A DNA stretch of 24,434 nt from NCBI GenBank assembly GCA_021031555.1, contig GCA_021031555.1_4954.1, one strand, 5' to 3'. Source of the stretch: a phage. The translations under genes were made by a program, and so were the position numbers. This document shows, piece after piece, positions 98 to 24,214 of the stretch. Numbering within the stretch: the stretch's first letter is position 1; every line of letters begins with the position of its first letter. The notes under the pieces were generated by a model. It saw only the letters and a program-made list of their open reading frames with translations, was not told the origin of the DNA and ran no database searches.

Positions 98-538
98 GTG
101 GTCAAGAAAACAAGAAGGGTTGAAGGTATGGATCCGAACATCAGATTTGCTACAGACGAATTCATTCGTCGCGCCCGTAAAGTTCACGGTGATCGTTACG
201 ACTACTCATTCAGCATTGTTGAAGATAGTTCCAGCACCGTGGTTATTATTGACCGTGAAACTAACACAGTGTTTTTCCAGGTTGTCGCTGAACATCTGGA
301 CGGTGTTGAACCGGTAACGACTGCTGTTGAACCGGTAACGACTGCTGTTGAACCGGTAACGACTGCTGTTGAACCGGTAACGACTGCTGTTGAATCGGTA
401 ACGACTGCTGTTGAATCGATCAAGAATCTTTCTGAGACATTCGGTAACGTTGCAAACAGCGTGTATCACCAGTGCAATTATTCATCCGAAATGTTAGAAT
501 TTAGTCATGTTGAAACAATACGAGGACAATCCCCGTGA
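98..538 (+). CDS. hypothetical protein with five tandem VEPVTTA heptapeptide repeats
   Basis: 146-aa ORF from GTG 98 (alternative ATG 128 preceded by AGAAGGG). In-frame 21-bp tandem repeat. N-terminal HGDRYDYS motif. Stop overlaps the next start (GTGA). Function not recognisable. Confidence 0.55.
   Translation: MVKKTRRVEGMDPNIRFATDEFIRRARKVHGDRYDYSFSIVEDSSSTVVIIDRETNTVFFQVVAEHLDGVEPVTTAVEPVTTAVEPVTTAVEPVTTAVESVTTAVESIKNLSETFGNVANSVYHQCNYSSEMLEFSHVETIRGQSP
305..418 (+). repeat. 21-bp tandem repeat, about 5.4 copies (gttgaaccggtaacgactgct), coding
   Basis: Four perfect copies at 305-388, one copy with C->T (389-409) and a partial copy (410-418). In frame within ORF 98..538. Confidence 0.9.
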
Positions 539-3637: not shown

Positions 3638-3658
3638 TAACAACTGTGGTATCATTAA

Positions 3659-3684
3659 GGGGTGGCTTATGCTGCCCCTTTTTT
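3659..3684 (+). terminator. rho-independent terminator after the major capsid gene
   Basis: Stem GGGGTGGC / GCTGCCCC (8 bp, two G-U pairs), loop TTAT, followed by TTTTTT. Confidence 0.7.
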
Positions 3685-3699
3685 CATGAGGTTAAAATC

Positions 3700-4053
3700 A
3701 TGCGTAATTCATATGATCCGTCACTGAAATATGTTTTCACCCGTCCGATGCTGTGGAACGGTAAACAGATGTCCGCTGGCGATAAAGTATCAACATCAAA
3801 AGCTACCCCGGCTGTTTTAAATGCCCTTGTGCGTATGCGCCACATTGAACCAGCTACTGCGACCGTTGAAGAACCAGTGATTATAGCAAACGAAGAATCG
3901 GCATCAACCACTGCGGCTGAAATCCGACGTGACGCGCCAAAAACCTATAACGTTTATGTTATGGGTATGCCGATGAATTCAGAATCGTTTAGTAGTAAAA
4001 GTGCCGCTGCTGAATGGTGTGAATCTCAAGGCTTGACATATAACTATTCTTGA
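3700..4053 (+). CDS. hypothetical protein
   Basis: ATG 3700 with GAGG 9 nt upstream. The ORF-track start at 3646 would read through the terminator hairpin, so it is rejected. 117 aa. Confidence 0.6.
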   Translation: MRNSYDPSLKYVFTRPMLWNGKQMSAGDKVSTSKATPAVLNALVRMRHIEPATATVEEPVIIANEESASTTAAEIRRDAPKTYNVYVMGMPMNSESFSSKSAAAEWCESQGLTYNYS

Positions 4054-8187: not shown

Positions 8188-8565
8188 TTACTTTTTTATT
8201 TTACAGTAACGTTGCCGTTTTTCCTCTTGCTCTTGTTCATAAACTTTATATGCCTCTAAAACTTCAGGTGTCGCATCTGGTCGGGATCCGTAACATGGGT
8301 AACACCAACCACGAGTAGTTGCAAAGGTGTACCATGATGCTGATTTTGTTTCCGGGTGCCATATCAACATTTCAAAATCAGAATCGTGATAACCATTGCG
8401 TTCACGTTCTTTGATACAGCAACCATGATCAGTTTCATAAAGAAAATAAGACGGCGGGTAATCTCCACCTATGTCATTCCGGTGAATAGGGCTGTAAGCA
8501 CCCTCAAGTAATTTAATATTTCCTTCAAAAACAGAACTATGCCAACCCATGTTAATAATTGCCAT
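8188..8565 (-). CDS. hypothetical Cys/Trp/Tyr-rich protein (moron inside tail module)
   Basis: 125 aa; ATG 8565 with GAGGA 8 nt upstream; own promoter candidate; opposite orientation to the surrounding structural genes; contains HGCC and WCYPCYG motifs. Confidence 0.65.
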   Translation of the reverse strand: MAIINMGWHSSVFEGNIKLLEGAYSPIHRNDIGGDYPPSYFLYETDHGCCIKERERNGYHDSDFEMLIWHPETKSASWYTFATTRGWCYPCYGSRPDATPEVLEAYKVYEQEQEEKRQRYCKIKK

Positions 8566-9514: not shown

Positions 9515-12500
9515 ATGGCACAATATCCTATTGATATTAAGTTTGATACAGGTAATGCAGATCGAAATCTTAACAATCTTAGTGACAGATTAGATCAGAC
9601 CGCGAAGGCGACGATAGCCGCGGCAACAGCTGCGAATAATTTATCAGATGCTGAACAAGCTGTTACCCAGGCCACTATACGTTTAGTACAACAACAAGCA
9701 AATAAAGCAGCAAGTGCTGCTGCTGATGCTCGTGCTACCAGAGAACAAGCACAGGAACAACTACGGTTATTAACTTCTCAAAATAAAATCAACGATAACC
9801 AAAAAAAAGCTATTGAATTAGCGCAAATTGTTGAACGTTCTTTACAGGATGAAAAGAAAGCTCTTGAAGACCTATCTTCATCTCAAAGTAGACTTAGTCA
9901 GTTACAGGAACCGTTCATACAACAAGAGATTGCAAAAAAAACAGCACAAGCACAAGCAGCAGAATCTGCAAAACGTGAGGCTGCTGCTCAACGTGAGGCT
10001 GCGAAAGCAGCGGCTGAAAAAGCAGCATCTGAACAAAAACAAAGACAAGCGTTAGATAATGCTAAAAAATCCAACGATGATTTCATAACATCATTACGAC
10101 AACAAATAGCAGTCTTAAAAACTACGGGTGTCGAGAGTGTAAAACTTCAGAATTCTTTTAAGTTGAATGCGCAAGCTACAGCAGAACAAAGAAAAGAAGT
10201 TGAAAAACTTTCACAAGAATTATACCAGTTACAGCAACCAGCAAAGAAAACATCAGGTACATTAGAAACACTTGTCACTGGTGCAAAAGCGTTTGTTGGT
10301 TTACAGATTGCAGGGTCACTTTACGACTGGGGTAAAGCGTTTGTAGATACTGCAACGAAAGTTGAACTGCTACAGAGTCGCATTAATCTGTACACATCAA
10401 CGTCGGTTGAATCACAACAGATTTTTGCGCAATTAGTACAACAGGCTAACCGTGCTGGTACAGATATTGACGCTGTGGCAAACAGTTTTCAGCGTTTTGC
10501 CGCTGCTGGTAAAGATGCCGGGATTAGTAATCAGGTTATTTTACAGTTTACCGACAACCTGCAAAAAATGGCCCGTGTATCTGGCGCATCCAGTGCTGAA
10601 GCATCTGCGGCTATTTATCAATTATCACAGGCGTTTGCATCTGGTCGTTTGCAGGGGGATGAATTCCGATCTGTGTCAGAACAGTTACCAACTGTTCTTC
10701 AGGTGCTGGCTAAACAGATGGGGGTGACCACGGGGGAACTTAAACAGTTAGGTTCTGATGGTGAAATCACTCGTGATAAACTATTGCTATTAAACAACGC
10801 GACTGATGAAATCAGCGCACAGTTCGATAAACTTCCTCGTTCTGTAGATCAGTCTGCTACTGCGTTACGTAACAACCTGTCCGTGGCTATCGCTGAACTC
10901 GATCAGCAGATTGGCGCATCTAAATTCCTGGCTAAATTCCTGGACCTGTTAGCAGGTGGTGTATCGGGTACAACAGAGTTAATAAAAGCCGCTGCAGGTG
11001 CTGACAAACTGGCACAAGCCACTAACAATCTGAACAGTGTTACCGCAAAACGCGAAGCCAATCTGAAAGAAATTGCAGATCTGGAAGCACAAATTCAGCG
11101 TGGGTATACAACACAGTCAATTGGTGGGTATACAAAATTTGTTGGTGATACAAGCGCTGCACAGAAGAAATTAAACGAACTTAAAAAACTTGATGTTCAG
11201 TTAACAAAACAACAAGCAGAAGCACAACGAGGGGTTGTTCAGGCTACTCCGTTGGGTAAGGGTGTTGCTGAAAATCTTGCAAATCAGGCAAGCACTTTAC
11301 AGGCGAGTATTACGGCTGCTCAGGCTGCCGGACGTCCTGATGCCGAATCTGCAAAACAGATTAAAAACCTGAAAGAACAGATCACTTACACCCAGGCGCT
11401 TGCTGACGGTAACTATGAACTGGCAGCAAGTCAGAAACTGGGTAATAAAGCAACTAAGGAACAGATTGCAGACTATGCTGCATTGTTGAAACAACAGGCA
11501 GAATATAAAGAAAATCAAAAGAACCAGAAGAAATTAGCCAGTGCTGAAGCATCTGCGGCTAAACGTGCACAGAAAGAACTGGAACGTAATCAGGCTGCTA
11601 ACCAGAAATACCTGAAAACGCTTCAGGATAAAATCAATGCTGGTAATTATGATGTTCAGTTAGCCCGCGAACAGGTTCAGATTGCTTTAACACAGGGGTC
11701 GTCTGTTGAACAACTTACAGCAACGTATCAGAAAGAATATCAGGTACGTCAACAGTTAACGCTGGCATCACAACAGGCAGAAGCACAGTCACGACTGAAT
11801 AAAGACGCGACTGATGCTGAACGTGCCGCTGTTGATGCACATGTGGCTGCATTGCAACGACAACAGCAGGCGCAACAGTTAGCTGGTCAGGTTTCACAGG
11901 TACAAACCGATGTACAGGGTGAGTTAAACCCGTATCAATCACAGGTTGATCAGGTTAATCAGCAGGAAGCACAACGTCTTACTGTCATACAACAAGCCCG
12001 TGAACAAGATTTAATCAACGAGCAACAATATCAGGACATGAAAACGCAGATTCAACAGGCCGGGGAACAAGCCCGTACGAATCTTGCGAATGCTAACTAC
12101 AGTCTGTTGCTACAGTCCAGTGCTGATTTTTTGGGTCAAATGGCTGCTGGTCTGGCACAATCTAAAGGTGAACAATCAAACGCGTATAAAGCGATGTTTG
12201 CACTGTCTAAAGCCTTTAGTATCGCACAGGCGAGTATTAACCTGTGGACAGCCGTTAGTCAGGCTATGGCGTTGCCGTTCCCGGCGAATATTCCGTTCAT
12301 TGCACAGGCTTTATCATACGGGACAAGCGTATTAGGTAACATTCAGTCTGTGGCTGCAACAGGTTTTGCAACGGGTGGTTATGTTAAAGGTCCGGGTACA
12401 GGTCAGAGTGACAGTATAAACGCACGTTTGAGTAATGGTGAATTTGTCAGTACCAAACAGGCTACGAGTCGTTATCGTAGCACTCTGGAAGCAATGAATC

Positions 12501-12724
12501 GTGGGACATACACCCCCGGATCTGAAGGTGGTTCATCACCTAATATTCAGGTTCATAACTACGGTGGTGAACGTGTTCAGGTGAAACAAGGATTAACACG
12601 GGATGATGTAGTGCTTATCATAGGTGAAGAATTCCCACGACAATCAGCGGCACAATGGAATGACCCGTACAGTCAGACAAATAAAGCGTTCAGGTCTAAC
12701 TATGATGCGAACAGGAAAATATAA
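9515..12724 (+). CDS. tape measure protein
   Basis: 1069 aa; long Ala/Gln/Glu/Lys-rich coiled-coil segments; position after the chaperones; TAATG coupling to the next gene. Confidence 0.9.
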   Translation: MAQYPIDIKFDTGNADRNLNNLSDRLDQTAKATIAAATAANNLSDAEQAVTQATIRLVQQQANKAASAAADARATREQAQEQLRLLTSQNKINDNQKKAIELAQIVERSLQDEKKALEDLSSSQSRLSQLQEPFIQQEIAKKTAQAQAAESAKREAAAQREAAKAAAEKAASEQKQRQALDNAKKSNDDFITSLRQQIAVLKTTGVESVKLQNSFKLNAQATAEQRKEVEKLSQELYQLQQPAKKTSGTLETLVTGAKAFVGLQIAGSLYDWGKAFVDTATKVELLQSRINLYTSTSVESQQIFAQLVQQANRAGTDIDAVANSFQRFAAAGKDAGISNQVILQFTDNLQKMARVSGASSAEASAAIYQLSQAFASGRLQGDEFRSVSEQLPTVLQVLAKQMGVTTGELKQLGSDGEITRDKLLLLNNATDEISAQFDKLPRSVDQSATALRNNLSVAIAELDQQIGASKFLAKFLDLLAGGVSGTTELIKAAAGADKLAQATNNLNSVTAKREANLKEIADLEAQIQRGYTTQSIGGYTKFVGDTSAAQKKLNELKKLDVQLTKQQAEAQRGVVQATPLGKGVAENLANQASTLQASITAAQAAGRPDAESAKQIKNLKEQITYTQALADGNYELAASQKLGNKATKEQIADYAALLKQQAEYKENQKNQKKLASAEASAAKRAQKELERNQAANQKYLKTLQDKINAGNYDVQLAREQVQIALTQGSSVEQLTATYQKEYQVRQQLTLASQQAEAQSRLNKDATDAERAAVDAHVAALQRQQQAQQLAGQVSQVQTDVQGELNPYQSQVDQVNQQEAQRLTVIQQAREQDLINEQQYQDMKTQIQQAGEQARTNLANANYSLLLQSSADFLGQMAAGLAQSKGEQSNAYKAMFALSKAFSIAQASINLWTAVSQAMALPFPANIPFIAQALSYGTSVLGNIQSVAATGFATGGYVKGPGTGQSDSINARLSNGEFVSTKQATSRYRSTLEAMNRGTYTPGSEGGSSPNIQVHNYGGERVQVKQGLTRDDVVLIIGEEFPRQSAAQWNDPYSQTNKAFRSNYDANRKI

Positions 12725-13730: not shown

Positions 13731-14086
13731 TCGGTGATCGCTACGATATTGATAAATGGAATTGTACACACGAGGTCAGTCAGTGGTATCAGGTGCACAA
13801 TTACCCACACGTATTGAAAACTGTTTCAGGTGATGAATGGGATATTGCGTTTGTCAGATGGATGCGAAAACGTTTTTTACCAATCACCGCACCGGAACAA
13901 GGTGCACTCGTACTGATGAAGAACAGATATTCAGGCGGTTTTCATGTCGGCGTGTGGGATTGTGGAATGGTTCATCATTGTTATCAACCACCGGGTGATT
14001 CACCGGGACAGACAATCAGATCACCTTTAAGTATAATCAAGACAGCACATAAAGAAATCACGTTCTGGAGAATGAAAAGTGTCTAA
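13727..14086 (+). CDS. tail assembly protein with NlpC/P60-like Cys-His motif (K-like)
   Basis: 119 aa; WNCTHEV (candidate catalytic Cys) and GGFHVGVW...HH; ATGA overlap with the upstream gene. Confidence 0.6.
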   Translation: MIGDRYDIDKWNCTHEVSQWYQVHNYPHVLKTVSGDEWDIAFVRWMRKRFLPITAPEQGALVLMKNRYSGGFHVGVWDCGMVHHCYQPPGDSPGQTIRSPLSIIKTAHKEITFWRMKSV

Positions 14087-16622
14087 AGTCATCTATCACA
14101 CTAATCCTGTTGAACACGCGGATAACGTTGACTTTGGTGAATGGATGCTGAAACGCTGGCCCGTGGGTACAGTTCGTCCACGTGGGTTACTGATTTATAA
14201 AAACGATGAGAACATCACCCAAAAGTGGGTTACTGATCCCAGCGTATTGACTGATCCTGACGCTGTTTATCACATTTATGAATTACCAAAAGGTGGGGTG
14301 ATTAGTGCAATAACGAAAGTTATTAGCACAATTCTAAACCCCATTTTAAAATTGTTCATGCCGAATACCAGTGCGTCGGCTAAGCTTAAGAACTCACGTT
14401 CAGCGTCGTCTAACAACGCGCTTCAGGGGCGTACCAACGCTTCACGACCCGGTGAACGTATTTCTGATATCCGTGGTCGTGTACTGGCATATCCTGACCT
14501 GTTAATGGACTACCGAATCTTTATTGACCGAAAAGAATATGAAGTTCAGTTCCTGTGTCTGGGCGCTGGTGAATATGAAGTCGAAGACGTTCGTGATGGT
14601 ATTACACCTGCTGTAAATATCAGTGGTGAAAAATTAGACTTTTATAAAAAAGGGAATGCACCTGGGTATGGTTCTCCGTACATGAATATTGGTGGTGCAA
14701 TTGATATTAACACTTTCCCGATCATGGTTGCTAAGTCATCGAATGAAGCAGACGGATCTGAAGTTAAACCGCCAAACTATGCTGATATCAGTAAAGCGAG
14801 TTTTAAAATTTACAGCACTGGTGAAATTGACACTACGATTTCCAGCGACAACAACACTACGATTGACTGGTCGGAACGTGCACCAATCGGTAGTAAAATT
14901 CGTTTATCGCAATTTTATAGCTTTACACCTAACACGTTACCGTTAAACACGTATGTACGTAATGATCTGTCTGGTGAATATGACATTATTTATGCAGGTG
15001 AGAATACGTTAATCATTGATACTACTGGTCGTGAAGGTTGGGATGCTCTGTCTGAAAGTGGTCAGGCTGCATATACACAGGCTTATTTGCGAAACGATGG
15101 TTACTGGGAACTTGAAACCACTGAAGGAAGCGGAAGTATTTTATACAAGTTTTCACCGTCTCTTGACAGTACCACGCCGTATATTGTCGGGCCTTATCTG
15201 ATTGATAGTGCGGATAAGTTGATGATTAATCTTTATGCACAGAATGGCGTGTATAAAACTGATGGCGACATTTATCCGTTTACCTGTGATTTTCAGGTAG
15301 TATTGTCAGACCCGAACGGTGTGAAAGCAAATGTTACACACTCTATGTCTGTCCGCGGTCGTTATACAGAAGCCGTAGGTAATTCGTTAATTGTGGACAA
15401 CCCTTTTGACGGCCCTGTCAACGTGTCTGTAAGACGACTGTCAAATACAGACAAAGACTTCGAAGGGTCTGTTGTTGACAACATCAAGTGGCGCGATTTG
15501 TACGCTATCACGAACGTTTCCCCGCGTTCCTATGGTGATGTGACATTGATCCATACAGTGACGAAAGCAACAAATGCGGCACTGAAACAAAAAGAACGTA
15601 AATTAAACATGATTGCAACCCGTGTGTATAACGGTGATGCAAGTAGTAATTTTGCAGACGTTGTAATGTCAATGCACACAGATCCTTTATTTGGTCGTCG
15701 CACATTGGACACCATTGATCGTGATGCTATATATGCTGTTCAGGCACAACTTCTTGAATATTTTGGTGACCAACGAGCAATTGAAGTTGGCTATACATTT
15801 GATAACAACAGTACGACGTACGAAGAAGGATTGGACACTATCTGTAACACGGTGAATGTTAAACCGTATCAGATCGGTAGTGTATTGTATTTCTGGCCTG
15901 AATTACCGCAGGACCAGTCTGCAATGCAGTTCGGTCATGCATTTAAAATTCCTGACAGTGATAAACGTACGCGCTCTTTTGCGCCACCTAAAGAATATAC
16001 TGGTGTTCAGGTTAAATACTTCGATCACGATGAAAAATCATATTTGTATGTAACCAAAGGTGAAGAAACAAACCTTAATAAGATAGATCTTGTTGCGTGT
16101 CAGTCGCGATATCTTGCAAACATTCGCGCTAATCGTGAGATGAATAAGTTACGTTATCAACGTATCACCCATGAGTGTACAGCGCTTAGTATCGGGTTAC
16201 AGGCTACCCCAGGTATGCGTGTGGATATGATTGATAATACCCGTATGAAACAGCATGAAGGCGTTGTAGTCGATGTTGACGGTTTAATACTTATTCTCAG
16301 CGATCCTGTTACGTTCACCACGGGTAATACATACAGCATAACGTTAACACACCGACTGGGAACACTTGAAAATATTCCTGTAACTGCCGGGGATAATGAA
16401 TTTTCAGTGGTAATGGCTTATCAACCGTCTGACGAAATTTATACAGGATGGTTGCGTGACCGTACAGCATATGTGATTCGTGCTGATGATGAGCGTAGCA
16501 AATTAGCAATGCTTGTTCAGAGGATGGAACCGTCAGGAAGAGATAATAACTATCAGGTAGGTTTAACGTGCATCAATTACGATGCACGTTATTACAAGGA
16601 TGATTTAAAACAAGTTATCTAA
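14079..16622 (+). CDS. tail tip / central fibre protein (J-like host specificity protein)
   Basis: 847 aa; GTG start with GGAGA 7 nt upstream; last large gene of the tail operon. Confidence 0.65.
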   Translation: MSKVIYHTNPVEHADNVDFGEWMLKRWPVGTVRPRGLLIYKNDENITQKWVTDPSVLTDPDAVYHIYELPKGGVISAITKVISTILNPILKLFMPNTSASAKLKNSRSASSNNALQGRTNASRPGERISDIRGRVLAYPDLLMDYRIFIDRKEYEVQFLCLGAGEYEVEDVRDGITPAVNISGEKLDFYKKGNAPGYGSPYMNIGGAIDINTFPIMVAKSSNEADGSEVKPPNYADISKASFKIYSTGEIDTTISSDNNTTIDWSERAPIGSKIRLSQFYSFTPNTLPLNTYVRNDLSGEYDIIYAGENTLIIDTTGREGWDALSESGQAAYTQAYLRNDGYWELETTEGSGSILYKFSPSLDSTTPYIVGPYLIDSADKLMINLYAQNGVYKTDGDIYPFTCDFQVVLSDPNGVKANVTHSMSVRGRYTEAVGNSLIVDNPFDGPVNVSVRRLSNTDKDFEGSVVDNIKWRDLYAITNVSPRSYGDVTLIHTVTKATNAALKQKERKLNMIATRVYNGDASSNFADVVMSMHTDPLFGRRTLDTIDRDAIYAVQAQLLEYFGDQRAIEVGYTFDNNSTTYEEGLDTICNTVNVKPYQIGSVLYFWPELPQDQSAMQFGHAFKIPDSDKRTRSFAPPKEYTGVQVKYFDHDEKSYLYVTKGEETNLNKIDLVACQSRYLANIRANREMNKLRYQRITHECTALSIGLQATPGMRVDMIDNTRMKQHEGVVVDVDGLILILSDPVTFTTGNTYSITLTHRLGTLENIPVTAGDNEFSVVMAYQPSDEIYTGWLRDRTAYVIRADDERSKLAMLVQRMEPSGRDNNYQVGLTCINYDARYYKDDLKQVI

Positions 16623-17027
16623 GCAGTTGGCTTGTTTTTTGTTGCAACATCTGAGCAGTGGAAAGATAAGCAGACAGGAGAAAAGAAAGAGCAGACTGAA
16701 TGGCATCGCGTGGTCATCTTCGGTAAACTTGCTGAAGTTGCAGGAGAATACCTTCGCAAAGGTTCGCAGGTTTATATCGAAGGCCAGCTACGCACTCGTA
16801 AATGGTCTGACAGCAACGGCGTAGACCGATATACCACGGAAATTGTCATTCCACAGATGGGCGGCGTAATGCAGATGCTTGGAAGTAAACGCGAAGATTC
16901 TGGTCAGCAACAACGCCAGCAATCAGGCCAACAACAGCAACGACAGCAACAGCAGCAACAAAAACTACAAAGCCCACAAGGAGGTAATGAGCCAAAGATG
17001 GATTTCGATGACGACATTCCCTTCTGA
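16623..17027 (+). pseudogene. ssb: 5'-truncated ssb (single-stranded DNA-binding protein) remnant
   Basis: The translation closely matches the E. coli SSB sequence as recalled from residue ~55 onward ([35 protein letters not shown]...DRYTTE) and ends in the canonical acidic tip MDFDDDIPF. The N-terminal part of the OB fold is absent. Homology begins 3 codons after the stop of the upstream gene, in the same frame. No RBS. Confidence 0.8.
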
Positions 17028-17031
17028 TGAT

Positions 17032-17059
17032 AAAACCCCGCCGAAGCGGGGTTTTATTT
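17032..17059. terminator. bidirectional intrinsic terminator
   Basis: AAAACCCCGC cgaa GCGGGGTTTT: GC-rich stem flanked by an A-tract and a T-tract, between the convergent ssb remnant and tailspike. Confidence 0.75.
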
Positions 17060-19054
17060 CTAAATAGCTTGCGCGGTAAGGATGATGCCAGATGAGTAAA
17101 GGGTCAGTCCCGTTATTTCACTAGCCAACAGCGCTTTGAACATGTTGCGGTCCTGCCCGAAAACAACGCCAGAGAAGAAAGTCCCAAGATTTCTGTATCC
17201 GCCAGCGGTTGGCATACGGATAAATAGGTAAGACGTACCCTCATACGTGCCGGTAAACCAAGCATCATAATCTGTGAGAGATTGGCTATCGCAGTGAGCA
17301 GCTCTGACTAATTTTGCTCGTGTATCAGTATCACTACCTACGGTATTGAAGTCATATACGCCAGCTATAGGGTTCATGCTTGGCCCACTCCGCAGAGTGA
17401 AAATCGTCCCAAGACAGCCACGCATTCCGTATTGCCCACCAACTATGCGGTAGTAAGGCCCAGCAGACTGGTCCGGGTTGGGTAACACCATATCGCGGCA
17501 CATAGTGGTGCTGAATGTCGGTATTGTCGCCGTTCCACCCATATTACCTAGCGTGGCGAAAGTCGCGGTTGCGGTGTCGTACGAGTTACGTTGAGGCCAC
17601 GACGTTTCAACCTTATTGCTGTACACGATTTCTAACTTAGCACCGTTAGTTAAACGGGCCATCGCTCCATTGAAAGTAGTGGTCGAATTGGTGATTAGTT
17701 GCTTAATGCTTACTTTCGCATAACCGGATAGGTCAAACATGTAGCTACCAGCAGCCTGCGTTTGGTCGTACAGGTGTATATTATCTATCTGTAAGTTAGC
17801 CCCGGTGCCTTTAATAATTGTGCCGTTGTTCTGGCGAGAAGGTTGCTCACAACCTAAAGATGAAACGCTGTACGAGCCTGCGTTAAAAATATACGGAGTC
17901 CCAGCGCAATCATCAGATGCTAACGGACCCACTTCGCAGTATGAGCCTGTCAACTCAAAGGAGCAGTAATTCGATTTATATACATTACATTGAGATAATA
18001 CGTAGCTCGTCCCACCATGTATATGAATACCACCGTATATACCCGTAGCGTCTGAACCTTGGACAACTATTTCGCGGATGGAAACACCAACGAATGTATT
18101 TCCGCCAAAATACATTCCCCATTTTTGCGCAAGGATAAATAGATCACTAAATTCCTGGTATACGGCGGTATTGGGAGTGTAGTACCCGTAGCTATCAGTT
18201 GTCTCGTCAAGGATGCGCAGTCCGCGGATAACATTACCGCGTTTACCTTTGTTATAGAAAACCGCGTTAACATCCTGAGTTCCTACTGCTGTTTTGCGAA
18301 TAATGGATGCACGTCCCTCGCCGACGAATCGGCTTCCCGGTGGCTGATAGTATTTCTCGTTGTAAACATCTTCCAAATCATAGAGAAGAATGGAGTCCGA
18401 TACCTCATATTCGCCAGCGGGCACAAATATAGTTTTTCCCAGTTGCGCGGATATAGTTGACGCGCGATTAAACGCAAGTGTCCAGTCAGGGTCGATGCTC
18501 TGGCGGAAATCAAGAACGGATATCATTTCCGCGTTTTTGTCATGCTGAGTGCGGCTTACCGTGTTGGCATATGGTTGTTTGACTCCAATGAGAGAATCAC
18601 CTTTCCCGCCATCCGTTGAAGCAAGACTGCTGGTTAACTGGTTTACTGCTGCCATTGCAGTGGCGTCACCAACACTAAGCCATGCACCTAAACCAATACC
18701 ACCAGAATTTTCAGGAGTTGAACCTGACGGGATAGTTTTAGGAAACTCGCCGTCCCAGCGATAATACTCACCAGTAGCTTCATGTCGCAAAACCTGATTT
18801 GGCAACGTCAGTGTCGCACCACCCTCAAAGCTATCCATTGTGATGTAACCGACCTGAGATATAGCCTGATTGTACAGGTTTTCTAAACCATCAAGTGTCT
18901 TGTTAGTAACTGATTGACCACGAATCGTATCGGTAACATCCAACGCGTGATTACCGTTTGCATCACGACTTTTTGCAACGTGTTCAATATGTAAAATCGC
19001 TTGTTTGCCTGTTTTCAAATCATCAGCACTGATATAATCGTTACAGTTAGCCAT
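17060..19054 (-). CDS. tailspike / receptor-binding depolymerase (right-handed beta-helix type)
   Basis: 664 aa from ATG 19054 (GGAGA 8 nt upstream). Central region has repetitive Gly/Asn/Thr-rich beta-strand character typical of pectate-lyase-like tailspikes, behind a ~130-aa N-terminal domain. Opposite strand to the tail operon. Confidence 0.75.
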   Translation of the reverse strand: MANCNDYISADDLKTGKQAILHIEHVAKSRDANGNHALDVTDTIRGQSVTNKTLDGLENLYNQAISQVGYITMDSFEGGATLTLPNQVLRHEATGEYYRWDGEFPKTIPSGSTPENSGGIGLGAWLSVGDATAMAAVNQLTSSLASTDGGKGDSLIGVKQPYANTVSRTQHDKNAEMISVLDFRQSIDPDWTLAFNRASTISAQLGKTIFVPAGEYEVSDSILLYDLEDVYNEKYYQPPGSRFVGEGRASIIRKTAVGTQDVNAVFYNKGKRGNVIRGLRILDETTDSYGYYTPNTAVYQEFSDLFILAQKWGMYFGGNTFVGVSIREIVVQGSDATGIYGGIHIHGGTSYVLSQCNVYKSNYCSFELTGSYCEVGPLASDDCAGTPYIFNAGSYSVSSLGCEQPSRQNNGTIIKGTGANLQIDNIHLYDQTQAAGSYMFDLSGYAKVSIKQLITNSTTTFNGAMARLTNGAKLEIVYSNKVETSWPQRNSYDTATATFATLGNMGGTATIPTFSTTMCRDMVLPNPDQSAGPYYRIVGGQYGMRGCLGTIFTLRSGPSMNPIAGVYDFNTVGSDTDTRAKLVRAAHCDSQSLTDYDAWFTGTYEGTSYLFIRMPTAGGYRNLGTFFSGVVFGQDRNMFKALLASEITGLTLYSSGIILTAQAI

Positions 19055-19080
19055 CTTTAAGTCTCCAGGAGTGTAGAACA

Positions 19081-19404
19081 ATGTCTGATAACCCAGTGTT
19101 AAGGTATTGGCCTATAATAGCATTTGTTGCCACGGGGTTGGTAGGTTACGGGGTAACTCAAAACCAAATCAATTCTAATGAAAAAGATATTGCAGATGCA
19201 AAAACCTATGCGCATGAAGCGATTAATCTGGCAAAACGTGTTGAATCCCGTGTGGATGTTCACGACATCAAAATTGAATATCAGGCAACACAGAATGCTG
19301 AAATTCTCACCAGTGTTAAAGAGCTAACACAGTCAACAAATGACCTGAAAGTTGTTATTGAAGGTTTGAAAGCGGAACAACGTAAAACCGGGAGTAAACA
19401 ATGA
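19081..19404 (+). CDS. lysis-associated membrane protein (putative holin or antiholin)
   Basis: 107 aa; one N-terminal transmembrane segment (PIIAFVATGLVGYGV) followed by a coiled-coil region; AGGAG RBS; ATGA overlap with the endolysin start. Confidence 0.55.
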   Translation: MSDNPVLRYWPIIAFVATGLVGYGVTQNQINSNEKDIADAKTYAHEAINLAKRVESRVDVHDIKIEYQATQNAEILTSVKELTQSTNDLKVVIEGLKAEQRKTGSKQ

Positions 19405-19790
19405 GTAACTTTAAATTCAGTCAGAGAAGTGAAAATAATCTGAAAGGGGTTAACCCGGATCTTGTGAAAATCGTGCGTCGGGCACTTCAGTTATCACCCG
19501 TTGATTTCGGTATCACAGAAGGTCTTCGAACTATTGAACGACAACGACAACTGGTTGCTGCAGGTAAAAGTCAGACAATGAACAGTCGTCATATTTCGGG
19601 TCACGCCGTGGATGTATTTGCTTATCCTACATCTGCCGGGTCGTGGGAATGGAAATACTACGAACAGATAGCCACTGCTTTTAAACAGGCTGCTAAAGAA
19701 CTGAATATCCCTGTTGAATGGGGCGGTGACTGGAAAACCCTGAAAGATGGTCCACACTTCCAGTTACCACATGCGAAATATCCCGCGTGA
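19401..19790 (+). CDS. endolysin, peptidase M15 family (L-alanyl-D-glutamate endopeptidase type)
   Basis: 129 aa; Zn-ligand motifs H-x-x-G-H-A-V-D and DGPHFQL; recalled similarity to the phage T5 endolysin. Confidence 0.85.
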   Translation: MSNFKFSQRSENNLKGVNPDLVKIVRRALQLSPVDFGITEGLRTIERQRQLVAAGKSQTMNSRHISGHAVDVFAYPTSAGSWEWKYYEQIATAFKQAAKELNIPVEWGGDWKTLKDGPHFQLPHAKYPA

Positions 19791-19800
19791 GATAACAATC

Positions 19801-20031
19801 ATGGATAAATTCAGCATATTACGTAACACAACCGGGGGGATCTCTTTAAGCCGCGCACAAGCGGCTTTAGGCTTCCTCGTGGTAACAGGCATTCTGATTT
19901 ATCAGGCCGTGGACCGCACACTTGATGATACAGTGCTGTTAACCTATTTCGGTTTCTGTATAGGTCAGTATGTTGGTGCTAAAAAAATCGCTGTAGATAA
20001 ACAACGAGGTACACCAAATGATAACCCGTAG
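19801..20031 (+). CDS. putative holin (two predicted transmembrane segments)
   Basis: 76 aa from ATG 19801; hydrophobic segments ALGFLVVTGILIY and VLLTYFGFCIGQYVGA; between endolysin and spanins. Confidence 0.55.
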   Translation: MDKFSILRNTTGGISLSRAQAALGFLVVTGILIYQAVDRTLDDTVLLTYFGFCIGQYVGAKKIAVDKQRGTPNDNP

Positions 20032-20416
20032 TGTGTTAATCACCGTTGTTGCAACTGTTCTAGTATTAGGCACTGGTGCGTATACGTGTTACCACGCGGG
20101 ATATAAAGCACGGGTAAATGAAGAACGTCAGGAACGTTTAGACGATGCACAACGGGAACAACAACGGTTAAAGGCACAACAGGAACTGGCAGATGATGTA
20201 CTTCGTGGTTTAGCTGACTGGTCGCAGAATACTAAAATCGTGGAAATACGACATGAAAAGACTAATACTGTTTTTCGTAACGAGTGTCTTACTTCTGAAT
20301 ATCAACGCTTGTACAACGAACGAGTTACCGAAGCAGAAGCCCGTTTATCAGGCCGCATTAGTTCAGAAGTGTCAGACCGAAAACCTTCCACGGCTGAACG
20401 GTCTGACAGGAAGTGA
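20018..20416 (+). CDS. i-spanin (Rz-like)
   Basis: 132 aa; N-terminal transmembrane segment then a charged coiled-coil periplasmic domain; start overlaps the holin end. Confidence 0.7.
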   Translation: MITRSVLITVVATVLVLGTGAYTCYHAGYKARVNEERQERLDDAQREQQRLKAQQELADDVLRGLADWSQNTKIVEIRHEKTNTVFRNECLTSEYQRLYNERVTEAEARLSGRISSEVSDRKPSTAERSDRK

Positions 20417-20501
20417 TTCAACAGATGTTAATGACCAGTGGTTAGATATTTATTTCAAATGTGCAACTATTCACAACGCATTAGTAGACAGTCTTCAGTA
20501 A
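20253..20501 (+). CDS. o-spanin (Rz1-like outer membrane lipoprotein)
   Basis: 82 aa in the +1 frame, starting inside the i-spanin and extending 85 nt past its stop. Signal peptide with a lipobox-like LNINA|C; Pro- and Cys-containing mature part. Confidence 0.7.
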   Translation: MKRLILFFVTSVLLLNINACTTNELPKQKPVYQAALVQKCQTENLPRLNGLTGSDSTDVNDQWLDIYFKCATIHNALVDSLQ

Positions 20502-20714
20502 ATCTTCAACCGACACCTCAATCCACGATGCGGGAACCGGATATTCAGTCCGGTACATGAACAAGGATGTTCCTATCAACCCGTGTGGATCTGTTTTAAT
20601 CCCTCGCATGTTCAACAATGGAAAAAACTGTTCGCGTGTTTGTGGCAATCTTGCAAAGCGTCCTGTCGGGCGTTTAGCAGGATCCATAGGGTTGAATTCA
20701 ACGATTGTGGACAT
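20481..20714 (-). CDS. hypothetical protein
   Basis: 77 aa; ATG 20714 with GGAG 9 nt upstream; overlaps the Dam-like gene 3' end and the o-spanin 3' end. Confidence 0.4.
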   Translation of the reverse strand: MSTIVEFNPMDPAKRPTGRFARLPQTREQFFPLLNMRGIKTDPHGLIGTSLFMYRTEYPVPASWIEVSVEDLLKTVY

Positions 20715-21219
20715 AACAATAACTCCTGTACGCTTGTCGTTTTATTTTCTGATAGTCAGAAACTTTTACAGATCTCGTTTTACATTCACCGATGTGAAGT
20801 GGGTCGAAAACAAACATCACCTGTGAACGGTCATTTCCTCCTGCTGGTAACCCGGTGTCAGGATCTACAAACGCTATACGACCTTTAAACATCCATAGTT
20901 CTGAACAATGTGTCAGTGCTTTGTGAAACCAGTCTGCAGACGTCATAGCGTTCACGAGTAATAACGAACCAGTTCCCTGATAAACAGTGGTTATTATTTT
21001 ATTAACCCAGGGAGACGGATCGCTGTACGGTGGGTTACACCAGATGAACCCACCACCATTACTTTGAACAATCGAATGCCAGTCTTTATTCAGACTATCA
21101 GTGATAAACAACGAACATTTAGCGTTAGAACCATCGGTACACACATCAAGAACAAGTGGGAATTCACGAGAAACATTATCAATAAAATCCCACGGTGTTT
21201 CCCAGTTGTCTTTAGCCAT
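20698..21219 (-). CDS. DNA N6-adenine methyltransferase (phage Dam-like)
   Basis: Start taken at ATG 21219 (MAKDNWETPWDF...). Has the WETPxxxF N-terminus, LDVCTDG and a CNPPYS (NPPY) catalytic motif. Confidence 0.8.
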   Translation of the reverse strand: MAKDNWETPWDFIDNVSREFPLVLDVCTDGSNAKCSLFITDSLNKDWHSIVQSNGGGFIWCNPPYSDPSPWVNKIITTVYQGTGSLLLVNAMTSADWFHKALTHCSELWMFKGRIAFVDPDTGLPAGGNDRSQVMFVFDPLHIGECKTRSVKVSDYQKIKRQAYRSYCYVHNR

Positions 21220-21565
21220 GTTCCGGTACGCTCTCCACGCTGTAATACACAGGAATACCCAGACGTTCAGCTTCTGCAATTTCTGCTAGCGTACCAGATG
21301 AACGACGATAATCAGGAAGCACCAGAACAGCGTCACAGCGGCGCATAACTTCTAATGTGCCTGACAGGTAGTATTCAGGTTGTATATTGCGTAAACCGCC
21401 GTCAAAGTCCCACAATTCGGTGTTCTTGTGAGGGATAACCGGGAACCACCCAGGACGTTGTAAAGCAAGTCTTTTACCTGCCTGTTCAGCGCGCGACACG
21501 TTACGGGATGTTTTAAGCGCACAATCAGCACGATAAGGCCCAGCAATGTAACAGAGTTTAATCAT
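21212..21565 (-). CDS. nucleoside 2-deoxyribosyltransferase-like / DUF4406-like protein
   Basis: 117 aa from ATG 21565 (MIKLCYIAGPYR...DAVLVLPDYRRSSGTLAEIAEAERLGIPVYY). Pattern recalled from this small Rossmann-like family; not searched. Confidence 0.45.
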   Translation of the reverse strand: MIKLCYIAGPYRADCALKTSRNVSRAEQAGKRLALQRPGWFPVIPHKNTELWDFDGGLRNIQPEYYLSGTLEVMRRCDAVLVLPDYRRSSGTLAEIAEAERLGIPVYYSVESVPEHG

Positions 21566-22357: not shown

Positions 22358-24214
22358 TTACCGAAGTGGTGCAACGAGTTTTTCAGCTTCTTTGATGTAA
22401 AAATCATAATTTAGCGTTGCCCGGTTAAAACGTTTCATGTCGTTGCACTCAGTGGTCAACCAACCTTTACACACTGACATGCGTCGTTCAGGCGCGTCAG
22501 GGTTCAGTTTCAGTGATTTTGCCAGCGGTGGCATGACTTTTGTCAACGGTGCACCATCTGTACTGACGTAATAACGGGTAATGTTCTGAACCTGTTTGTC
22601 ACCCCATAGTAATTTGCTGTTACGCGGTACTTTCGTCACCAACATAAAATCGTGAATGTCTTCGTGTGATGTTATAAAATCACGAATGTCTTTATTGTGT
22701 ACCAGTGCTGCTTCAGCCGCTTTTGCGACAACCTGCATACTGTGGTTTTGATGCCAACCCAGATCAACACTGTGGCAATAAGCACCTTTACGTTTAACTT
22801 TCTTACCACCTTCATAAACAGCGATGTAGTTATTTACATCGCGGATAAACATCACGTCATAAATCGCTTCTTCAAGCTGGAGTCTGGTTAATTTTTCCCA
22901 CGCGTGACGAACCTGTTCCACTTGTCCGGTAAATACTCGTGGTACGTAAACCGTAAGACCATCTGTGTTAGCCTGGATCATGGATAAACCAGGGATTTTC
23001 AGAAGTTCTTCCGCCAACATGCACAAAAGCAATTGTCCGTTAATCGTAATAGCCATTGTGTATGCGGGATCGTAAAACGGGCTGTATACGTTATTACTGT
23101 CACCGTATACACCGTTTAACGCCAGTTTTAACATTGCGTTTTCTGGTGTACCTTTCGGGTAACTGGAACGCATGTCGTAAACATTTTTATAAATGGTGCA
23201 AAATTGTTTTCCCAAATGTGCAGGGTAAAGTTCATTACTAATTGCAAGGTTTGGATAAAAACTGGCAACATCCAGATCGATGATTACATAATTTTCAGTG
23301 GACCTTATAGTTTGAGATTCAATAGACCCGTGGATACCACCCGTACCAAAATCAAACGAGAACCCGTTAATGTCTGCGCTTAAATCAGTAAACACACCTT
23401 TTGTTTCAGTGATGACTTGTTGGCGTAACCAGTTAAGAACACGATTAAATTCAGGCTGTTCAAAATGAACATAAGGGAAAATCACGCTGTTTAATGCGAT
23501 TGATGGTCTGTGCGTCTGCCGTGGTTTTCTGCTACCCGGTTCGAAACATTGAATACCTGATTTTTCAAGTTCCATAATGAAATAGTCTTTACCGATTTTC
23601 GTGTCATTATGATTCATGAAATTACGACCGTATTTAGCAGAAAGTTCACGACGAAAATCTATCAGCTTTTTACTGTGTTTATAAAACATCAAAGTCGCTT
23701 TCAAATCGTGTATCAGGTATTGACGAAGCGTATCAATTTGAGAATCGGTTAAATAAGTCCCTGGTGTAAACGGGAGGTCTTCAATGTTTTCCATTCTCAT
23801 ATTGAATTCAAGTGTTTTCAGACTTGTTCGTTTTGCCTGATTGTCGAAATGATGAATTTTATACAAATCAAGCTGGGGAACTATCCAGTCTTTTTCCCAC
23901 ACCATATGAGCAAAACGATTTTCATCACCAGCGTTAATTATCGAATCACCTTTTTTATAAATGTCTGCGTTGGTGATGTACATGATGTTGTTCAAAATAG
24001 AATGCTGAACAGGATAGTCGTAACCCAGATTGTTATAACCAACTTCTTCAGCGCGATGTTCACGCAAATATTCTGTGAACAGGTAAAAAGCCTGACGATC
24101 ATCGCGACGATGTGAAATCTCAAAAATATAAGGTGTTTCAGTTAACGCGTGAATAGCACCGAACAGAAAAACATTAGGATAGTTTTCAATATCATGAACG
24201 TAAGCATCTGACAT
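22358..24214 (-). CDS. family B DNA polymerase with 3'-5' exonuclease domain (compact)
   Basis: 618 aa. Exo I (HDIEN), Exo II (YNNLGYDY) and Exo III (YLIHD) motifs. Polymerase motif A (DLDVASFYPN), motif B (KLALNGVYG) and motif C (ANTDG). AGGA RBS. Confidence 0.75.
   Translation of the reverse strand: MSDAYVHDIENYPNVFLFGAIHALTETPYIFEISHRRDDRQAFYLFTEYLREHRAEEVGYNNLGYDYPVQHSILNNIMYITNADIYKKGDSIINAGDENRFAHMVWEKDWIVPQLDLYKIHHFDNQAKRTSLKTLEFNMRMENIEDLPFTPGTYLTDSQIDTLRQYLIHDLKATLMFYKHSKKLIDFRRELSAKYGRNFMNHNDTKIGKDYFIMELEKSGIQCFEPGSRKPRQTHRPSIALNSVIFPYVHFEQPEFNRVLNWLRQQVITETKGVFTDLSADINGFSFDFGTGGIHGSIESQTIRSTENYVIIDLDVASFYPNLAISNELYPAHLGKQFCTIYKNVYDMRSSYPKGTPENAMLKLALNGVYGDSNNVYSPFYDPAYTMAITINGQLLLCMLAEELLKIPGLSMIQANTDGLTVYVPRVFTGQVEQVRHAWEKLTRLQLEEAIYDVMFIRDVNNYIAVYEGGKKVKRKGAYCHSVDLGWHQNHSMQVVAKAAEAALVHNKDIRDFITSHEDIHDFMLVTKVPRNSKLLWGDKQVQNITRYYVSTDGAPLTKVMPPLAKSLKLNPDAPERRMSVCKGWLTTECNDMKRFNRATLNYDFYIKEAEKLVAPLR

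Follow-up and report, generated by a model that had tools for sequence, protein, structure and literature searches.

Conserved leftward tailspike gene with an exchanged receptor-binding domain and a predicted lysis promoter in a 9NA-like phage

The tailspike-lysis locus of the phage contig GCA_021031555.1_4954.1 (24,434 nt; the whole stretch of DNA analyzed, hereafter the window) is an ordinary further member of a known architecture. The joint explanation that we consider the best, and very probably the correct one, combines the known 9NA-like gene layout, a modular leftward tailspike gene, a mosaic ssb remnant with a terminator, and a lysis promoter that we infer to lie inside the tailspike gene. 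The layout leaves current understanding unchanged, having been described for phage 9NA and annotated in several genomes; only the predicted promoter embedded in coding sequence could add new knowledge.

At the nucleotide level, about 80% of the window (78-83%) is 93-96% identical to Sashavirus BDX09P1, Bas82, Sasha, Sergei, and Solent, and the identity to 9NA is approximately 82%. The window appears to be a virion-tail, lysis, and replication segment of a 9NA-like siphovirus (Sashavirus/Nonanavirus), the host of which would be Escherichia coli or a close relative. Searches for tRNA genes and Rfam families gave no hits anywhere in the window.

Gene order around the tailspike gene

The features of the locus are the following.

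14079..16622, + strand: tail tip (J-like) gene, last of the rightward virion operon (weak Pfam match to FNIII-A_GpJ)
16632..17027, + strand: 5'-truncated ssb, 131 aa; OB fold without its first ~33 residues, acidic C-terminal tip DFDDDIPF kept
17032..17059, both strands: bidirectional intrinsic terminator where the ssb remnant and tailspike gene converge
17063..18643, - strand: exchangeable receptor-binding/enzymatic beta-helix part of the tailspike, residues ~138-664 (87% amino acid identity to prophage tailspikes)
18662..19054, - strand: tailspike residues 1-131, the conserved N-terminal module for virion attachment, with Tail_spike_N
19030..19038, + strand: candidate extended -10 sigma-70 promoter, TGATATAAT, in tailspike codons 6-9 (D-Y-I-S)
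19055..19080, no strand: divergent spacer of 26 bp between the tailspike ATG (19054, - strand) and the holin ATG (19081, + strand)
19081..19404, + strand: first lysis gene, holin-like, one predicted transmembrane segment (phrog_24402 'holin', E 5e-56)
19114..19122, - strand: weaker, speculative candidate extended -10, TGCTATTAT, for the tailspike, in holin codons 12-14
19401..19790, + strand: endolysin, Peptidase_M15_4, L-alanyl-D-glutamate peptidase type (PF13539, E 7.6e-13; phrog_465, E 3.5e-74)
19747..20501, + strand: rest of the lysis cassette (PHROG matches, Bas82 and Sasha annotations, and ORF coordinates), with the three genes below
19747-20031, + strand: small membrane protein ORF, start uncertain
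20018-20416, + strand: i-spanin
20253-20501, + strand: embedded o-spanin

The tailspike ORF (17060-19054, - strand) encodes 664 amino acids, with the ATG at 19054 (CAT at 19052-19054) and a TAG stop codon at 17060-17062. A TTG-extended variant (17060-19081) is possible; ATG 19054 is the annotated start in all relatives. The ORF list and the annotated relatives agree with the statement of the earlier note that this is the sole recognizable virion gene on the - strand within the window. For the product of 14079..16622, the aligning proteins in Bas82, 9NA, Sasha, and PJ16 carry the annotation 'tail protein / tail tip protein', and in the same four phages the homolog of the first lysis gene is annotated as a holin. 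The end of the lysis cassette overlaps a convergent - strand gene (20481-20714) by 21 nt.

We compared 22 loci from Nonanavirus, Sashavirus, Carvajevirus, and metagenomic contigs, of which 16 were aligned and 6 further metagenomic ones were found by a scan with the holin alignment; a high-GC match from that scan (L029) was spurious and was discarded. Junction coordinates were derived for 18 loci, plus the 6 additional metagenomic ones. In all 22 loci, the tailspike gene points leftward, running toward the tail tip gene on one side and away from the holin gene, across a very short spacer, on the other. The same order and strands are annotated in seven genomes (Bas82, 9NA, Sasha, PJ16, Carvaje, SP069, and VLCpiS10a), and 8 IMG/VR and 6 metagenomic loci share the junction. 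Judging from these comparisons, the leftward layout is ancestral to the whole 9NA-like group. The opposite orientation of the tailspike gene was already published for 9NA in 2014 (PMC4153490).

The earlier note called the gene inverted, implying that the phage represented by the window had recently undergone a local inversion or taken up a whole foreign tailspike gene as a cassette. Compatible with such an event, the C-terminal 530 residues of the tailspike are foreign to the 9NA-like group, and the neighboring ssb remnant and terminator are mosaic. However, the same orientation and junction (a 26-28 bp head-to-head arrangement) recur in 22/22 loci, down to ~70% nucleotide identity and with Klebsiella and Salmonella phages included; the conserved part is the 5' 393 nt of the gene together with the spacer; and 9NA, Sasha, and PJ16 show the layout without any ssb remnant. 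Since orientation and junction are common to all the 9NA-like loci compared, the tailspike gene is not a locally inverted insertion, and we regard that scenario, refuted by the comparative data, as having almost no chance of being correct.

What the earlier note described at the 3' end of the tailspike gene, an ssb remnant with a bidirectional terminator, was confirmed by SSB alignment and hairpin folding. In the product of 16632-17027, the Pfam SSB match covers profile positions 28-101 only; the first 33 codons are missing, so that this SSB homolog does not have the complete OB fold (~105 N-terminal residues). The closest full-length relative is the 161-aa SSB of phage ASO78B (88% amino acid identity to residues 34-161); DNA homology starts abruptly at GTTGCAACATCTGAGCAG. 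The region is ~89-92% identical at the nucleotide level to Jersey-like/Kagunavirus-like phages, and the remnant is absent from 9NA, Sasha, and PJ16. The terminator hairpin, CCCCGC-CGAA-GCGGGG (17036-17051), has a 4-nt loop and is flanked by AAAA on the left and TTTTATTT on the right. It was missed by the automatic terminator scan, apparently as the A/T tracts lengthen the stem, and was folded explicitly instead (-20.7 and -21.0 kcal/mol on the + and - strands; z-scores of -4.3 and -4.1, respectively). The U-tract is UUUUAUUU on the + strand and only UUUUAU on the - strand; in ASO78B, the annotation of the homologous element gives each strand a terminator of its own. The truncated ssb and the terminator probably are a mosaic fragment from a Kagunavirus/Jersey-like phage, in which the ssb and tailspike genes are also convergent.

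Domain exchange on a conserved adaptor

The assignment of the protein as a tailspike, proposed in the earlier note, is supported by a Pfam match, a beta-rich AlphaFold model, and Foldseek best matches to tailspikes and depolymerases. The N-terminal module contains Tail_spike_N (TSP1/gp66-type, PF18668; residues 64-130, E 3.8e-21), and the PDB sequence matches were to CBA120 TSP1, TSP3, and TSP4 (over the PF18668 residues) and to Sf6. The AF2 model (pLDDT 78; mostly 85-96 over residues 180-490) is nearly all beta-strand from 208 to 660. All 50 best Foldseek matches were tailspikes, depolymerases, or tailspike-like beta-helix proteins, including CBA120 TSP3, TSP4, and TSP1 and the Sf6 and HK620 tailspikes with a probability of 1.0; the TM-scores were only 0.25-0.38 because the domains of the monomer model are not in the trimer arrangement. 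For residues 130-664, for which the earlier note had proposed structure prediction, AF2 and Foldseek indicate a right-handed parallel beta-helix body. Residues ~138-664 are, according to this model, a predicted polysaccharide-binding and -cleaving beta-helix domain.

The two parts of the protein differ in their relationships. Residues 1-131 are 76-84% identical in amino acid sequence to those of Sasha and 9NA (84% to 9NA gp55), and the identity to Bas82 is 81% over residues 1-149, with no similarity further on; DNA homology with 9NA-like relatives resumes at ~18663. Residues ~138-664 show no similarity to the same region of the 15 other 9NA-like tailspikes. The earlier note suggested a search of related genomes for replacement of the tailspike at this junction; across 16 loci, we found 16 mutually unrelated C-terminal domains, all on a conserved N-terminal anchor. 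The proposal of a horizontally exchanged receptor-binding cassette accordingly holds for residues ~138-664 and fails for the whole gene, of which the junction and the first 131 residues are conserved.

Relatives of the exchanged part were found in other phages. In tailspikes from P22-like E. coli prophages, residues 112-639 match residues 138-664 of the tailspike of the window with 87% amino acid and ~87% DNA identity, and the domain is 81% identical to that of a 738-aa protein with a T7-tail-fiber N-terminus. By sequence, the receptor-binding domain of the window is of the type shared by these P22-like prophages and the protein with the T7-like N-terminus. The nearest full-length relative of the tailspike (P0001, 92%) is found in a different phage context, and no record of an identical tailspike protein was present among the indexed contigs. 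Residues 1-131 would attach the spike to the 9NA-type baseplate as an adaptor specific to this family, and the beta-helix domain, beginning at about residue 138, just past the GAWLSVGDA motif, appears to be swapped by recombination between unrelated phages. The locus provides a clean example of a receptor-binding-domain swap on a fixed adaptor, with the recombination junction just past GAWLSVGDA, at ~residues 131-138; this junction could help in engineering the host range of 9NA-like phages and in predicting hosts from prophage tailspikes.

Four complete E. coli genomes encode a full-length tailspike homolog, and their O-antigen clusters give no more than a hint at the glycan specificity: two of them (WL164 and 3CM) carry O160-family wzx/wzy genes, which occur in 16 of 5426 genomes. 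WL164 carries an O9 cluster besides the O160-family wzx/wzy, and a third genome, CH468, has a different, unnamed cluster.

The divergent spacer and candidate promoters

As the earlier note stated, the start codons at 19054 and 19081 are 26 bp apart, and GGAGA and AGGAG can be read directly in the shared spacer. The segment TCTCCAGGAG at 19062-19071 holds one Shine-Dalgarno sequence per strand, GGAGA on the - strand (19062-19066, 7 nt from the tailspike ATG) and AGGAG on the + strand (19067-19071, 9 nt from the holin ATG). The two ribosome-binding sites had been described as overlapping; in fact, they abut, share no base, and would sit on different mRNAs. The spacer measures 26-28 bp in the 16 aligned loci, except for one in which 6 extra nt follow the holin ATG, and both ribosome-binding sites are annotated in the GenBank record of Sasha. 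A Dcm site (CCWGG) in the spacer was dropped from consideration, being not conserved in Sasha or in the Klebsiella phages. A CUCC/GGAG hairpin that would hide the ribosome-binding site within one mRNA was rejected as well: it would leave a loop of just 1-2 nt, and shuffled sequences are no less structured than the leaders.

The geometry of the junction bears out the earlier claim that a promoter just upstream of either gene must overlap the coding sequence of the other, and a conserved candidate is present in tailspike codons 6-9. This site, TGATATAAT, is a perfect TGnTATAAT-type motif ~42-43 nt upstream of the holin ATG, essentially without a -35 element. It is one of three perfect TGNTATAAT motifs in the window (1.04 expected); sigma-70-like sites show no overall enrichment in the window. 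The automatic promoter scan, which requires 4/6 matches in the -35 hexamer, missed the site, which was found by alignment and then scored with a position-weight matrix. TGATATAAT is invariant in 16/16 aligned loci and in the 6 further metagenomic loci; in every locus, no other promoter-like site in the 700 nt preceding the holin gene scores as high. The motif needs ATC (32% of Ile codons) and AGY serine codons, and both are fixed. Among the first 60 tailspike codons, invariant ones cluster only modestly in codons 2-18 (6/12 vs 3/21), and the invariance of TGATATAAT could partly reflect amino acid conservation and shared ancestry. We consider it the best candidate for a lysis promoter, from which the host sigma-70 RNA polymerase would transcribe the lysis cassette. 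In PJ16, a 4-nt overlap between the tail tip and tailspike genes leaves no room for a terminator, so that rightward read-through into the lysis genes is conceivable in some relatives. Transcriptome data for Nonanavirus or Sashavirus did not turn up in a literature search.

Transcription of the tailspike gene itself might begin at a promoter within the 5' portion of the holin coding sequence, or polymerases coming from the leftward replication operon might read on into the tailspike gene; in both cases, the transcript would end at the bidirectional terminator. For the former, the candidate is TGCTATTAT. Relatives carry TGTTATGAT or TGTTATAAT at this site, with TG-N-TAT-N-AT kept in all aligned loci and the rare Ile codon ATA (16% usage) invariant at holin codon 13. 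The site has no -35 element, and the looser leftward motif occurs 7 times in the window, no less often than the 6.8 times expected by chance.

Under the latter possibility, the tailspike gene would be the last of the leftward replication unit, read from upstream of the DNA polymerase gene, with no promoter of its own; the polymerase would cross the 1.4-kb lysis cassette antisense, enter the tailspike gene, and stop at the bidirectional terminator. The 21-nt overlap of the o-spanin end with the leftward gene at 20481-20714 is consistent with this, there being no intergenic terminator, and so are the lack of a strong or conserved - strand terminator between 20714 and 19054 and the failure of the position-weight scan to find a consistently high-scoring leftward promoter. 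A -8 kcal/mol hairpin with a T-run at 19988-20007 occurs in the E. coli clade only and is absent from 9NA, SP069, and Sasha. Yet, an abundant late structural protein would then rely on 1.4 kb of antisense transcription across late-expressed genes, convergent transcription over such a distance is normally costly, and conserved -10-like elements are present just upstream of the tailspike gene. We rate read-through as possible, with roughly three chances against it for each in its favor.

If both embedded promoters were active, the rightward transcript would start near 19045 (tailspike codons 6-9) and the leftward one near 19107 (holin codons 12-14), so that the two mRNAs would share a complementary 5' leader of ~60 nt spanning both ribosome-binding sites and both start codons. 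Such face-to-face promoters might be a regulatory device that balances or times tailspike synthesis against lysis through interference and/or leader pairing. In all aligned loci, the critical -10 positions and the TG upstream are preserved in both motifs, which vary only where the hexamer matters least; ATC and ATA, neither of them a preferred codon, are fixed; the 26-28 bp spacing is kept over ~70% nucleotide divergence; and the phage Mulvp2 also has a leftward/rightward pair with predicted starts facing each other. Against this, the leftward motif, no rarer than chance and lacking a -35 element, is never among the top-scoring sites of its region, other leftward candidates are present but clade-specific, neither predicted leader is unusually structured, and the conserved YWPII(A/T)F peptide together with the need for two ribosome-binding sites can explain the conservation. 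We therefore consider a regulatory device of this kind unlikely, and a conserved antisense or interference circuit in 9NA-like phages, by which lysis timing and the supply of the last virion component would be coupled, a little more unlikely still; the antisense coupling of host recognition and lysis, suggested in the earlier note, is speculation. Should the embedded promoter be confirmed, it would show a phage compressing divergent late promoters into coding DNA, and synonymous mutations would offer a simple handle on the link between tailspike supply and lysis timing.

Comparison with known systems

Face-to-face promoter pairs are known from coliphage 186 (pR/pL) and IS10 (pIN/pOUT), and the IS10 overlap covers a ribosome-binding site. 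The two predicted promoters of the window, if active, would resemble these pairs in lying ~60-80 bp apart and yielding 5'-overlapping transcripts. Unlike in 186 and IS10, both transcripts would be mRNAs for late proteins, with no switch between alternative states and no dedicated antisense RNA. The distant relative Mulvp2 speaks for the embedded lysis promoter: there, the spacer is 111 bp long, and a classical promoter (TTGTCA-17-TAGAAT) lies 34 nt upstream of the holin-like ATG; the embedded motif is missing despite a similar N-terminal sequence (QYVSA, compared to DYISA in the window).

The closest sequenced genomes are those of Escherichia phage KarinMuster (Bas82) and Sashavirus BDX09P1 (96% nucleotide identity over 81% of the window). 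Both share with the window the same truncated ssb and an identical junction sequence, including TGATATAAT and TCTCCAGGAG. Bas82 differs in the receptor-binding domain past residue ~131-149 and in the terminator downstream of ssb, and its annotated tape measure gene (2,568 nt) is shorter than that of the window (1069 aa). Infection by Bas82 depends on the O16 O-antigen (PMC11990801).

Synteny and strands at the gp55 tailspike/gp56 holin locus of 9NA (Nonanavirus; Casjens et al. 2014) are the same as in the window: tail tip, leftward tailspike, rightward holin, endolysin, membrane protein, and spanins, and leftward replication genes. The 9NA spacer is 28 bp long, the N-terminal 131 tailspike residues are 84% identical, and the holins are 76% identical. 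In 9NA, the tail tip and tailspike genes are not separated by an ssb remnant, and the tailspike carries a P22-type endorhamnosidase domain for the Salmonella O-antigen, whereas the window encodes an unrelated domain of the E. coli prophage type. The 9NA gp55 tailspike was reportedly described by Andres et al. in 2012.

The receptor-binding domain of the window is shared with tailspikes of P22-like E. coli prophages annotated as 'phage head-binding domain-containing protein' (e.g., WP_250663127 from strain WL164). These prophage proteins have the P22 head-binding domain (PF09008) at the N-terminus, in contrast to the 9NA-type adaptor with Tail_spike_N of the window, and, again unlike the window, the WP_250663127-type tailspike belongs to a P22-like prophage beside a gtrA remnant and immI-like genes. 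The presence of one receptor-binding domain in podovirus, siphovirus, and other virion types is also known for P22, 9NA, and Det7.

Gene map and the tailspike-holin junction

The window matched Sashavirus and Nonanavirus genomes (Sashavirus BDX09P1, Escherichia coli phage KarinMuster Bas82, PJ16, and Salmonella phages Sasha, Sergei, and Solent) with 93-96% identity across about 80% of its length, and Salmonella phage 9NA with about 82% identity. The gene map was derived from the Bas82 and 9NA annotations, with which the Pfam and PHROG scans of the window ORFs concur:

up to the J-like tail tip gene (14079-16622), + strand: capsid and tail genes
17060-19054, - strand: tailspike (664 aa), after the tail tip gene
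19081-20501, + strand: holin-endolysin-membrane protein-spanin cassette
3' of the lysis cassette, - strand: replication genes, including DNA polymerase (22358-24214)

ORF 98-538 (+) contains a near-perfect 21-nt tandem repeat (304-415; 5.3 copies, 98% matches) that encodes (VEPVTTA)n in a small protein; six copies are present, the last two slightly variant, compared with two to three in the Bas82 orthologue, so that copy number differs among close relatives. The tape measure protein (9515-12724), at 1069 aa, is longer than the 971-aa protein of 9NA and than the product of the Bas82 gene, annotated at 2,568 nt; the roughly 100 extra residues lie near the N-terminus (around residues 115-220), and this length predicts a tail longer than those of the relatives. 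The leftward ORF 8188-8565 (-), flanked by the major tail gene and the chaperone gene, aligns with no more than positions 1-125 of phrog_30881 (207 positions), the Sasha gp43-like protein family, and looks like another truncated moron-type gene. The DNA methyltransferase ORF 20698-21279 (-) encodes 193 aa, whereas the syntenic gene is 1182 nt long in both 9NA and Sasha and reaches 1521 nt in VLCpiS10a; in the E. coli clade, this gene is shortened or remodelled.

Direct reading of the sequence bore out all coordinates in the earlier note. The 664-aa ORF runs on the - strand from the ATG at 19054 to the TAG at 17060-17062, and the + strand holin ATG lies at 19081, leaving 26 bp (19055-19080) between the start codons. 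Within this spacer, TCTCCAGGAG (19062-19071) provides a Shine-Dalgarno sequence for each gene: GGAGA for the leftward ATG, at a distance of 7 nt, and AGGAG for the rightward ATG, at 9 nt. Described earlier as overlapping, these sequences abut and would sit on separate mRNAs.

A leftward tailspike gene opposite the holin gene is annotated in Bas82, 9NA, Sasha, PJ16, Carvaje, SP069, and VLCpiS10a; its orientation in 9NA was published by Casjens et al. 2014 (PMC4153490), and in the GenBank record of Sasha the spacer bears an annotated ribosome-binding site for each gene. Both start codons were placed in 18 loci and in 6 more metagenomic loci. Loci of the E. coli clade have a 26-bp spacer and those of the Salmonella and Klebsiella clades a 28-bp spacer, and the junction alignment contains a single locus with a 6-nt insertion directly past the holin ATG. 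In the distant Enterobacter phage Mulvp2, the arrangement is kept with a spacer of 111 bp. Because the layout is common to the seven annotated genomes, 9NA as published included, and to the surveyed loci, the tailspike gene is not a local inversion in the window phage, a reading that the earlier note implied. Judged from these genomes, the leftward tailspike facing the holin is a family trait, already known, and the locus is a further example of this architecture.

The tailspike and its exchanged receptor-binding domain

The assignment of the 664-aa leftward protein as a tailspike holds in both sequence and structure comparisons. Pfam identified Tail_spike_N (PF18668) at residues 64-130 (E 3.8e-21), and the PDB sequence search returned matches to the N-terminal modules of CBA120 TSP1/3/4 and others, as well as a match of residues 142-291 to the start of the Sf6 tailspike beta-helix (E ~3e-11). 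In the AlphaFold2 model (27 homologues as input, mean pLDDT 78), residues 1-68 are disordered and the chain is nearly all beta-strand from about residue 208, with pLDDT 85-96 over 180-490. The best 50 Foldseek matches in the PDB were all phage tailspikes, depolymerases, or tailspike-like beta-helix proteins, led by CBA120 TSP3 (E 2.6e-14), TSP4, TSP1, Sf6, and HK620; the modest TM-scores (0.25-0.38) are expected because the model is a monomer of a multi-domain trimer.

The tailspike shares 84% identity with 9NA gp55 over residues 1-131 and 81% with the Bas82 protein over residues 1-149, and the likeness to both ends just past the GAWLSVGDA motif; DNA identity with the family picks up again at about 18663. 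From residue 150 on, all pairs among 16 9NA-like tailspikes showed no BLASTP similarity or only short local similarity. Replacement at the same junction, checked in relatives, is thus seen as 16 loci with differing C-terminal domains on a conserved N-terminus. The window's domain was not found in any of the six extra metagenomic loci. Many E. coli genomes encode 640-aa proteins named "phage head-binding domain-containing protein" (PF09008), whose residues 112-639 share 87% identity with residues 138-664 of the window's tailspike; in DNA comparisons, the domain is matched (~87%) in 5 of 5426 complete genomes. In E. coli WL164, the homologue is part of a P22-like prophage, alongside Arc/antirepressor-type genes, ejection proteins, and a gtrA remnant. 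Two further protein relatives carry the same domain, one fused to a T7-tail-fibre-type N-terminus (P0002, 81% over the full length) and one in a further phage context (P0001, 92%). The nearest full-length relative within the phage collection, SKML-39, is just 38% identical. The proposed exchanged cassette is therefore upheld for the receptor-binding domain and not for the whole gene, since the N-terminal 131 residues are family-conserved. Modular exchange of this kind is known for P22, 9NA, and Det7 tailspikes (PMC4153490); the domain swapped here is of the E. coli type.

Four complete E. coli genomes encode a full-length homologue, and two of them (WL164 and 3CM) carry O160-family wzx/wzy genes, a cluster that just 16 of 5426 genomes contain; an O9 cluster is also present in WL164, and the cluster in CH468 is a different, unnamed one. 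Given the 87% identity, the glycan specificity of the window's domain may differ from that of the homologues. In WL164 (NZ_CP128642.1, 1,774,277-1,798,242), the O160-family Wzx/Wzy cluster lies between galF and gnd, and a complete O9-family ABC-transporter cluster (wzm/wzt/wbdA) lies between wzzB and his, so that one genome holds two O-polysaccharide loci.

On the 3' side of the tailspike gene, the "ssb remnant with bidirectional terminator" of the earlier note was recognized correctly. The + strand ORF 16632-17027 is an SSB homologue (Pfam) with 88% aa identity to ASO78B, a Kagunavirus-like phage whose SSB has 161 residues, of which 34-161 are covered by the alignment. Between AAAA and TTTTATTT lies the hairpin CCCCGC-CGAA-GCGGGG (17036-17051), which has a folding energy of about -21 kcal/mol on both strands, against -10 +/- 2.5 for shuffles. 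Homology to ASO78B DNA starts abruptly at codon 34 and continues through the terminator, on which ssb and the tailspike gene likewise converge in ASO78B, with annotation on both strands. The truncated ssb is common to Bas82 and BDX09P1, and 9NA, Sasha, and PJ16 lack it. The segment is therefore a mosaic fragment and probably a relic of a past exchange, at the tailspike end, with a phage of the Jersey-like or Kagunavirus-like kind. The truncated SSB begins at a TTG 10 nt past the tail tip gene. The first third of its OB fold is missing, but the C-terminal acidic tip DFDDDIPF is retained. In bacterial SSB, this tip recruits partner proteins, and the truncated protein may be a defunct relic or may serve as a decoy for proteins that bind SSB. 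In PJ16 (L004, 16170-16173), unlike in the window and Sasha, the tail tip and convergent tailspike genes overlap by 4 nt, leaving no intergenic space for a terminator.

Candidate promoters inside opposing coding sequences

With 26 bp between the start codons, any promoter immediately 5' of either gene would have to overlap the opposite coding sequence, and the earlier reasoning to this effect is geometrically sound. In the junction alignment, CTGATATAAT is invariant at 19029-19038 (+). It includes TGATATAAT, a perfect extended -10 element (TGnTATAAT) with its 3' end 42-44 nt upstream of the holin ATG. Only three perfect extended -10 motifs were observed on the two strands of the window together, against 1.04 expected; by a rough estimate, one would land by chance within the right 100 nt, and on the right strand, with a probability of about 0.002. 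In a position-weight scan of the 700 nt 5' of the holin gene, this site ranked first in each of the 16 loci. The motif spans tailspike codons 6-9 (GAT TAT ATC AGY), which are fixed, with ATC accounting for only 32% of Ile codons and AGY for 39% of Ser codons in the window phage. Mulvp2, with its roomier spacer, differs: it has a classical TTGTCA-17-TAGAAT promoter 34 nt upstream of the holin-like ATG and lacks the embedded motif despite a similar peptide. The motif count, rank, fixed codons, and contrast with Mulvp2 make it likely that an embedded sigma-70 promoter, as predicted here, drives the lysis cassette. The element has no -35 element, sigma-70-like sites are not enriched overall in the window, and conservation of the motif is confounded by coding constraint and shared ancestry; the promoter is a testable prediction. 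Among classical promoter-like sites in the window, the strongest is TTGATG-16-TATAAT, preceded by a TG (3880-3907, - strand); it points left to the 3' end of the major capsid gene, just past a rightward terminator (3657-3680).

For the tailspike gene, a candidate motif, TG-N-TAT-N-AT, is conserved at 19114-19122 (-), within holin codons 12-14, where a rare ATA codon is invariant in the alignment. This looser motif occurs at chance frequency in the window and scores poorly in the position-weight scan, in which the remaining leftward candidates are clade-specific. Alternatively, the tailspike gene could be reached by read-through from the leftward replication operon across the antisense lysis cassette. 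Between that operon and the tailspike gene, no - strand terminator was found that is strong or conserved, and the o-spanin gene (+) and the first leftward gene (20481-20714) are convergent, overlapping by 21 nt (20481-20501) and lacking an intervening terminator, so that the rightward transcripts of the lysis genes and the leftward ones of the replication genes must collide or overlap. These features leave room for read-through, which we consider a minority prospect.

If both extended -10 elements were active, the rightward start (about 19045) and the leftward start (about 19107) would be directed at each other, making the leaders complementary over about 60 nt. The coupling or antisense interference between host recognition and lysis that the earlier note proposed is speculative. 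That both fire toward each other in this way seems to us improbable; such facing promoters would resemble the known arrangements of pR/pL in coliphage 186 or pIN/pOUT in IS10.
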